Assembly (NCBI GenBank): GCA_946407055.1
Contig: CAMJMP010000002.1
Coordinates: 7,400-71,399, forward strand
Source of the DNA: an uncultured Mycoplasmatota bacterium
GTDB taxonomy: Bacteria > Bacillota_I > Bacilli_A > RF39 > UBA660
Direction of reading: 5' to 3'
Length of the DNA: 64,000 nt
The translations under genes and the position numbers were made by a program. The notes under the pieces are model-generated. The model saw only the letters and a program-made list of their open reading frames with translations. It searched no databases and was not told the origin of the DNA. Shown here one piece after another: positions 22,987-23,087 of this stretch; position 1 is the first letter of the stretch; every line of letters begins with the position of its first letter.

Positions 22987-23087
22987 GACTTCTTACGGGG
23001 TTCGAACCCATATCTTCAGCACGGATTTAATCTTTCAAAGAAGAATTAAAGGATACTGATGTTTTAGCCTTATTAAACTAAAGAAGT
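22987..23087 (-). tRNA. 101-nt tRNA gene with a 27-nt insertion in the anticodon loop (possibly Gly-UCC)
   Basis: Acceptor ACTTCTT/AAGAAGT (7/7), D arm GTTT-AATAAGGCTA-AAAC, T arm ATGGG-TTCGAAC-CCCGT. Anticodon stem TCAGT/GCTGA is separated by 34 nt (ATCC-TTTAATT...GATTAAA-TCCGT) that forms its own helix. Confidence 0.55.

Follow-up and report, generated by a model that had tools for sequence, protein, structure and literature searches.

To our knowledge, protein-dependent splicing of tRNA is a trait of archaea and eukaryotes; we know of no such process in bacteria, and in the tRNA genes of bacteria and phages we know only of self-splicing group I introns. In 2019, 'enigmatic introns' were described in tRNA genes of Lak megaphages (Devoto et al. 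2019, PMC6784885). Phage tRNAs are also used to counter tRNA-cutting defences, and those with altered anticodon loops escape host anticodon nucleases (van den Berg et al. 2023, PMC10264068). In this study, we analyzed a stretch of 64,000 nt (hereafter the window; positions 7,400 to 71,399 of contig CAMJMP010000002.1, assembly GCA_946407055.1), which is part of the ~180-kb genome of a crAss-like phage from ruminant guts, and characterized in it a tRNA-shaped gene, designated t1, in which a hairpin takes the place of the anticodon loop. A first-pass annotation of the window, made from the letters alone, had considered such an insertion unexpected in a bacteriophage. It is indeed unusual for a phage, but the Lak report provides a precedent (PMC6784885). 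Before this, short inserts of a non-group-I kind had been reported from phage tRNA genes once, in Lak megaphages and without a mechanism. The present case concerns a different phage group; its insert is much shorter, simpler and non-canonically placed, and it comes with two sister genes and with evidence of selection from population data. We tentatively interpret the t1 RNA as a non-decoding tRNA look-alike that may use its body as a decoy for a host factor that binds tRNA, or to compete for it.

The body of t1 is that of a canonical class I tRNA. Rfam model RF00005 matched the gene from end to end (model positions 1-71) with 46.3 bits, compared to a gathering score of 29 (E 1e-6 for the whole window). 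The acceptor stem (ACUUCUU/AAGAAGU) is paired at 7/7 positions, and the tertiary signature bases U8, A14, A15:U48 and A21 are all present. However, 34 nt lie between the strands of the anticodon stem instead of the normal 7-nt loop, and a 7-nt loop with U33 and a purine at position 37 is not found in the gene as encoded; 27 nt would have to be removed to obtain it. The first-pass annotation had described this architecture, with an acceptor stem paired 7/7, intact D arm, T arm and anticodon stem, and a 27-nt, helix-forming, non-group-I insertion in the anticodon loop, and the Rfam alignment, our reading of the stems and the folds all agreed with it; it had given no strand for the gene, which lies on the minus strand, and had not listed the similar gene t2 (see below). 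With default settings ARAGORN did not call t1. When introns were allowed, a 27-nt intron was placed in the gene with Gly(CCC) as the product, and forcing the canonical intron site changed the product to Arg(CCU). Since default bacterial tRNA finders miss genes of this kind, phage tRNA counts are underestimates. A tRNA-His was also considered for t1, given a G at position -1 and C73, and was rejected: the GUG triplet is not conserved, and position -1 is A in one related locus (L018).

The 27-nt insert makes the anticodon arm of t1 a closed rod of approximately 17 base pairs. In the minimum-free-energy (MFE) fold, the arm begins with 5+2 bp, continues past a 2x3 internal loop (CC/UCC) into 7 bp and, beyond a C.A mismatch, another 3 bp, and is closed by a UUU loop; the insert hairpin stacks on the anticodon stem via A-U and U-R pairs and this internal loop, and the z-score of the fold was -3.86 against 200 shuffles. 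The helix TTTAATT/GATTAAA, which had been proposed from the letters, is part of the MFE fold. As the arm is a closed rod without an anticodon loop, the primary product cannot read a codon. A long-stem tRNA with the anticodon at the hairpin tip was rejected, the tip being a variable loop of 3-4 nt.

The insertion had also been reported to be flanked by a direct ATCC repeat. The repeat is present in the window, but a functional role for it did not hold up: the repeat varies among alleles (ATCT...ATCC in L033, ATCC...ATCT in L043 and ATCC...ATC-G in L015), and its copies in the window are 28 nt apart, so that deletion of one copy would leave a loop of 6 nt, not 7. When copies of the t1 insert and of the insert of its sister gene t2 (see below) were searched for in the window and all fetched loci, allowing up to five mismatches, none was detected elsewhere. 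Each insert occurs as a single copy and only inside its own tRNA gene, and a mobile repeat or miniature element was rejected on these grounds.

To examine variation at this locus, 25 t1-bearing contigs were fetched via the neighbouring 78-aa and 193-aa proteins and four further alleles were rebuilt from variant tables, resulting in 16 distinct alleles. Stem statistics cover 15 window-type alleles from sheep and cattle gut phages, and L015 was handled separately. All four tRNA stems were kept in the 15 alleles, with 493 of 494 stem cells paired (99.8%). Four pairs changed on both sides: 13-22 in the D stem (U-A to C-G in three alleles), 31-39 in the anticodon stem (U-A, U.G and C-G), 51-63 in the T stem (six pair types) and 52-62, also in the T stem (G-C and A-U). 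The observed pairing and covariation were approached by no shuffle and by no slid register. In two cattle RNA runs (X43/X44), 20 differences were listed in ~120 nt of the adjoining leader (23088-23204), whereas none was listed in 23002-23087, which includes the insert. Because the stems stay paired, four pairs co-vary, and the leader diverged while the gene did not, t1 appears to be under selection. A decaying pseudogene in homologous phages, which the first-pass annotation had named as the finding to look for, is not what the homologous loci contain.

These data also bear on a different explanation, in which t1 is an inactivated duplicate tRNA gene that was disrupted by the insertion and seems conserved because the sampled phages are closely related. 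All relatives found are indeed ~80-100% identical, several tRNAs of the array are duplicated, default ARAGORN misses the gene, and no register yields the same anticodon in all alleles. In addition, nucleotide 26 is missing in L033, and L015 has a C31.A39 mismatch. Even so, inactivation is quite improbable in our view, given a single unpaired cell in 15 alleles and four pairs changed on both sides, a T stem in L033 that is perfect and rebuilt with new pairs, and a gene that stayed the same next to a strongly diverged leader and that sits behind a leader highly represented in RNA-derived contigs.

The insert itself was present in every allele: none of the 16 was insert-free, and insert length ranged from 26 to 30 nt. 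The sequence of the insert helix was invariant in the 15 window-type alleles except for the apical C48-G52 pair. Changes in the arm either preserved pairs (U.G to U-A or C-G; G-C to G.U), or were located in the unpaired internal loop (C37U in L033, C65U in L043, deletion of one C in L015) or at the hairpin tip (deletion of U46, G52A), and in this way no candidate anticodon triplet escaped change in all lineages. In L015 the loop segment is 37 nt long, with a 30-nt insert that folds into another hairpin in the same position; it retains the blocks AUCCUU, UUUGAAAG and AAAUC.

The main alternative to a tRNA look-alike is that the insert is an intron. The 101-nt precursor would be cut around the hairpin by a protein endonuclease that does not use a bulge-helix-bulge, and then ligated by host RtcB or a phage Rnl-type enzyme to a 74-nt decoding tRNA, most consistently with the joint AUCCU^RU (CCU, Arg) or alternatively AU^UCCRU (UCC, Gly), where the caret marks the joint. 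We regard this as somewhat unlikely, although several features of t1 would suit it. The tRNA body is canonical and under selection, the site of the insert is precisely the anticodon loop, and in one register the 7 nt that remain include U33 and have a purine at 37, position 66 being only G or A among the alleles. A conserved insert base with a variable tip (U46 deletion, G52A, the L015 hairpin) is typical of introns with structural signals. Moreover, neither the array nor 10 kb beyond the left end of the window contains a tRNA for AGA/AGG or for Tyr, and the tRNA introns of the Lak megaphages of Prevotella were reported to include one in their only tRNA-Tyr (PMC6784885).

The candidate anticodons themselves argue against an intron. 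Registers were defined by the number k of nucleotides kept at the start of the 34-nt segment, with 7-k kept at its end. The best-fitting register, k=5 (AUCCU^RU), gives CCU and is kept in 15/16 alleles (CUU in L033); k=2 (AU^UCCRU) gives UCC and is kept in 14/16 (UCU in L043, UC- in L015); and k=3 or 4 (AUC^CCRU or AUCC^CRU) gives CCC, which is altered in two of four allele types. Thus, each candidate is altered somewhere and none is invariant across the 16 alleles. The first-pass annotation had proposed UCC (loop ATTCCGT), which is less well kept than CCU and would duplicate an intact tRNA-Gly of the array. The codons read by the other two candidates are almost unused, AGG (for CCU) accounting for 8 of 283 Arg codons and GGG (for CCC) for 3 of 485 Gly codons. 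The canonical 37/38 intron position fared no better: when it was forced in ARAGORN, the loop became AUCCUU^U, with U at 37, and other registers fit a normal loop better. A20 is an identity mark of tRNA-Arg and U73 of tRNA-Gly; the t1 body has neither, and its discriminator base is C.

Splicing signals and enzymes were also searched for. A likeness to the introns of archaea and eukaryotes had been suggested on first pass, but no bulge-helix-bulge in canonical orientation was found in t1, L033, L043, L015 or t2, which indicates that the t1 insert is not an intron of the archaeal or eukaryal type. The script that was used (3-nt bulge, 4-bp helix, 3-nt bulge) was validated on a synthetic motif, and the one match in mirror orientation was at chance level (44/500 shuffles). 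On the other hand, the statement that the insert is too short for a group I intron is well founded: it has 27 nt and no Rfam match besides tRNA (E up to 1), and Rfam detected neither a group I ribozyme core in the insert nor a group I intron in the window. No splicing endonuclease or RNA ligase was recognised in ~74 kb of the ~180-kb genome (38 larger open reading frames (ORFs) of the window plus 10 kb to its left); window ORFs were checked by Pfam, PHROGs, NCBIfam or PDB sequence search. AlphaFold models built without alignments for two unannotated array proteins (359 and 268 aa) had pLDDT values of 33 and 43 and were not used for fold searches. Spliced joints were also absent from the assembled contigs of 12 RNA-labelled runs, a comparison of weak power given that contigs are blind to rare or small forms. 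That short hairpin inserts are genuine introns, cut out and joined by proteins without a bulge-helix-bulge signal and hence representing a third kind of tRNA splicing in a bacterium-phage system, is unlikely in our estimation. If it were true, spare tRNAs could stay masked from host anticodon nucleases until they are matured.

Two sister genes in the same array provide additional information. In t2, 48 nt separate the stem strands GCGAC/GGCGC. Removal of a 41-nt insert, located 5' of the loop remainder, leaves UUGAUAC, a perfect Ile(GAU) loop with U33 and A37, and in folds the insert forms two hairpins, the second of which pairs with the anticodon; these features are in favour of an intron. 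Among alleles, the loop of hairpin 1 shows indels and a G-C pair has become G.U, and both observations support this hairpin. The t2 gene is conserved in L014-L017 and L024, where all changes fall inside that loop or directly beside it. However, the inserts of t1 and t2 share no common motif and occupy different loop positions, which argues against recognition by one sequence-specific enzyme. The third abnormal gene has a loop of 6 nt in the window (CUGCGG), and of 7 nt (CUGUCGG, Asp GUC) or 9 nt (CCCCGUCAG) in relatives, whereas its body shows only 0-1 changes among alleles. This pattern is the opposite of that of canonical array tRNAs, which were used as a control: their loops were unchanged and their bodies had 1-10 changes, the exceptions being two alleles that keep a 7-nt loop. 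Thus, three tRNA bodies whose anticodon loop is not normal are retained in this lineage.

t1 is transcribed with its insert included. Contigs from six RNA runs, belonging to metatranscriptomes of several studies, extend from the leader into t1 and through the whole insert, and stop at about 23002-23012 or, when their unmatched tails are counted, at or near the tRNA 3' end; no RNA-derived contig without the insert was found. In one run (X28), a leader contig ends 10 nt short of the tRNA 5' end. Depths in RNA-derived contigs were 94-298 for the leader and 0-44 downstream of t1. The leader is among the best-represented stretches in these contigs, yet it is fast-evolving. A coding leader was rejected, as each of the three frames contains every type of stop codon. 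Two terminator-like hairpins bracket the leader and t1, which possibly form a separate transcription unit. In the trailer (22900-22986), the first 40 nt after t1 (CCUAAAAUGAAACGGCGAUUCUCACAUGUGUAUACGUGAA) are nearly invariant in all alleles, even in L015 and L018, where the tRNA or the leader differs.

Based on these observations, we favour a tRNA mimic for t1. Its RNA would be cut from the transcript by RNase P and RNase Z, as tRNAs are, with the hairpin kept, and would work via its L-shaped tRNA body and not by decoding. Most plausibly, it would act as a decoy for a host tRNA-binding or tRNA-cutting protein, such as a tRNA-directed defence nuclease, or compete for that protein. The invariant hairpin could then provide a site of specific binding, or it could cap the arm and so protect it from cleavage, and the same interpretation may extend to t2 and the third abnormal gene. 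We favour it because selection acts on the body and the helix and not on any anticodon, because the codons concerned are unused or already served, because the third gene varies freely in loop length, and because no new enzymology is needed.

Several points weigh against this interpretation. The decoy role of t1 is something we infer. What remains of the loop outside the insert can be read in t1 as a regular loop of 7 nt that has U33 and, at 37, a purine (AUCCU^RU), and in t2 as the Ile loop, in both cases as an intron would leave it. The sequence of the insert helix is more conserved than that of the T stem, which would be expected of a signal recognised by a splicing enzyme no less than of a binding site. 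The RNA data are assembled contigs, and carry-over of DNA into RNA libraries is possible. In addition, the alleles represent one narrow lineage, in which short divergence times and recombination may explain part of the conservation, and the T-stem compensations could in part have come from gene conversion.

Table 1. Features of the tRNA array discussed in the text, in window coordinates.
Feature	Positions	Strand	Evidence
tRNA array, ~30 tRNA genes, t1 being the first gene	1178-23087	minus	
Free-standing PD-(D/E)XK endonuclease, 142 aa	9597-10025	minus	Pfam PDDEXK_5, E 1.8e-29; PDB 2OST, E 6.6e-6
DUF7788/DUF2828 protein, 587 aa, within the array	12591-14354	minus	Homologue annotation
t2, second over-long tRNA-shaped gene	17573-17689	minus	Rfam tRNA, 42.8 bits; ARAGORN
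Third abnormal tRNA-shaped gene	20042-20113	minus	Relatives at L024:14402-14476 and L033:5581-5653
Terminator-like hairpin, 14 bp then T run, ~220 nt downstream of t1	22732-22763	minus	Consensus scan only
t1, tRNA-shaped gene, 101 nt, canonical class I body	22987-23087	minus	Rfam tRNA; ARAGORN with introns
t1 T arm, AUGGG-UUCGAAC-CCCGU	22995-23011	minus	Rfam alignment
t1 anticodon stem, 3' strand, GCUGA	23016-23020	minus	Rfam alignment
34-nt segment replacing the 7-nt anticodon loop, AUCCUUUAAUUCUUCUUUGAAAGAUUAAAUCCGU	23021-23054	minus	Rfam alignment
Insert hairpin, UUUAAUU/GAUUAAA, C.A mismatch, UUC/GAA, UUU loop	23026-23050	minus	MFE and centroid fold
t1 anticodon stem, 5' strand, UCAGU	23055-23059	minus	Rfam alignment
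t1 D arm, GUUU-AAUAAGGCUA-AAAC	23061-23078	minus	Rfam alignment; G18 G19 in loop
Non-coding leader upstream of t1, ~680 nt	23088-23770	minus	RNA-derived contigs; frame translation
Terminator-like hairpin after the 193-aa gene	23771-23800	minus	Consensus scan only

Genes located within and next to the array were also considered. The PDDEXK_5 gene starts 4 nt after a tRNA-Lys, inside the array. Its PDB match, 2OST, is I-Ssp6803I, the endonuclease of the tRNA-fMet group I intron, which binds anticodon stem-loop DNA, and the phage protein is probably a homing endonuclease. This raises a further possibility with regard to origin, compatible with the other interpretations: the insert might be a remnant of intron or homing-endonuclease traffic in the array, or an immunity mark, in that an insertion in the anticodon stem-loop DNA would shield the gene from a homing endonuclease recognising that symmetric site. 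The group I introns of bacterial tRNA-Arg(CCU) and tRNA-Ile adjoin the anticodon, in line with this idea. Nevertheless, we consider it very improbable. The endonuclease gene is 13 kb away from t1, no group I intron was detected in the window, and the insert has no ribozyme core and ends that break group I rules (its last base is C, or G/A); protection of the DNA would also leave the selection on a gene with a blocked loop unexplained.

A role of t1 as a tRNA mimic may be easier to place in this neighbourhood. Homologues of the DUF2828 protein are annotated as 'Ro-like RNA-binding protein' in mycobacteriophages and are found in many tRNA-rich phages, and the protein is a possible partner of tRNA-like RNAs. 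To the left of the window (L030:5339-10200, L031:6691-9890), two Tad2-like genes are followed by genes for an NMN adenylyltransferase-like protein, NAPRTase and NAD synthase, i.e., an NAD+ salvage set, and then by AAA, RNase H and Band_7 genes and a tRNA-Gln. By their predicted products, these genes suggest that the array adjoins a counter-defence island.

The assignment of the window to a crAss-like phage is consistent with a protein at 59919-61337 that matches the Crassvirus major capsid family. The G+C content of the window is ~30%, and the same sequence is present in metagenomes and metatranscriptomes of sheep and cattle guts. The nearest phage record by capsid protein is MT835470.1 (58% identity), which contains no tRNA genes in the whole record. 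Protein searches found only close relatives, down to 41% identity, the lowest of them on short contigs. Megablast with 22000-24500 and blastn with t1 against INPHARED phages returned nothing useful, pattern scans of IMG/VR (DNA or protein, and also the conserved insert blocks) revealed no relatives, and a scan of JGI metagenomes built for alleles with and without the insert gave 10 chance matches, none of which was a tRNA.

Several other features of the tRNA set were observed. Nearly all array tRNA genes are followed by C at position 74, and none encodes CCA. The array contains a tRNA-Ser (3081-3170) with the unusual anticodon ACU and a tRNA-Met (10183-10251) of only 69 nt. Suppressor-type tRNAs with anticodons UUA and CUA are located at 17414-17484 (minus) and 29449-29521 (plus). 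Stop codons of the large ORFs are mostly TAA (15), with four TAG and four TGA.

In summary, three tRNA-shaped genes that lack a normal anticodon loop are maintained under selection in one phage lineage, beside counter-defence genes. If the hairpin of t1 is not excised, this would be a new class of phage tRNA mimic, probably tied to the arms race over tRNA-cutting defences. If it is excised, a new RNA-processing pathway would be implied, and the 27-nt insert would offer a much simpler model substrate for the 'enigmatic introns' of Lak.

Compared to known systems, t1 shares with archaeal and eukaryal introns (EndA/Sen with RtcB or Trl1) a short, helix-forming insert in the anticodon loop that extends the stem, and t2 shares with them an insert that pairs with the anticodon. 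Unlike these introns, t1 has no canonical bulge-helix-bulge and would fit the 37/38 position only with a U at 37; the DNA examined yielded no recognisable EndA- or RtcB-like gene, and the host is presumably a bacterium. Group I introns are likewise inserted in or next to the anticodon, and the t1 array also encodes an I-Ssp6803I-family homologue, but these introns have at least ~200 nt, whereas the t1 insert has 27 nt, no ribozyme core, no Rfam match and no conserved terminal G. tRNA-like modules, such as the YrlA Y RNA bound by Ro/Rsr and the stable RNAs C and D of the phage T4 tRNA cluster, offer a further lead. They too have a non-decoding, tRNA-shaped body beside tRNA genes, and the t1 array contains the Ro-like DUF2828 gene. 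In YrlA, however, the RNA ends are at the anticodon-stem side and the acceptor stem is closed, while t1 has an open acceptor and a closed anticodon arm, and no Ro-binding helix motif was seen in t1.

The phage tRNAs that escape anticodon nucleases belong to a counter-defence array and have changed loops with the body kept, as does the third abnormal gene described here; they keep a 7-nt loop and decode (PMC10264068), in contrast to the hairpin-closed or abnormally sized loops of the genes studied here. The closest precedent is Lak. Lak is a 540-kb megaphage, in contrast to the crAss-like phage of ~180 kb analyzed here. Its inserts are longer (79-93 nt), with T-arm-like hairpins (GGTTCGAATCC) or a possible nested tRNA, whereas that of t1 is a plain A/U-rich hairpin of 27 nt, and in Lak alleles occur both with and without the insert, compared to none insert-free among the 16 of t1 (PMC6784885). 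Both are nevertheless gut phages with a large tRNA set that includes suppressor tRNAs, and both carry a non-group-I insertion in the anticodon loop that has no Rfam match and no known splicing route (PMC6784885). The Lak inserts are also highly conserved between samples, as is the insert of t1 (PMC6784885).

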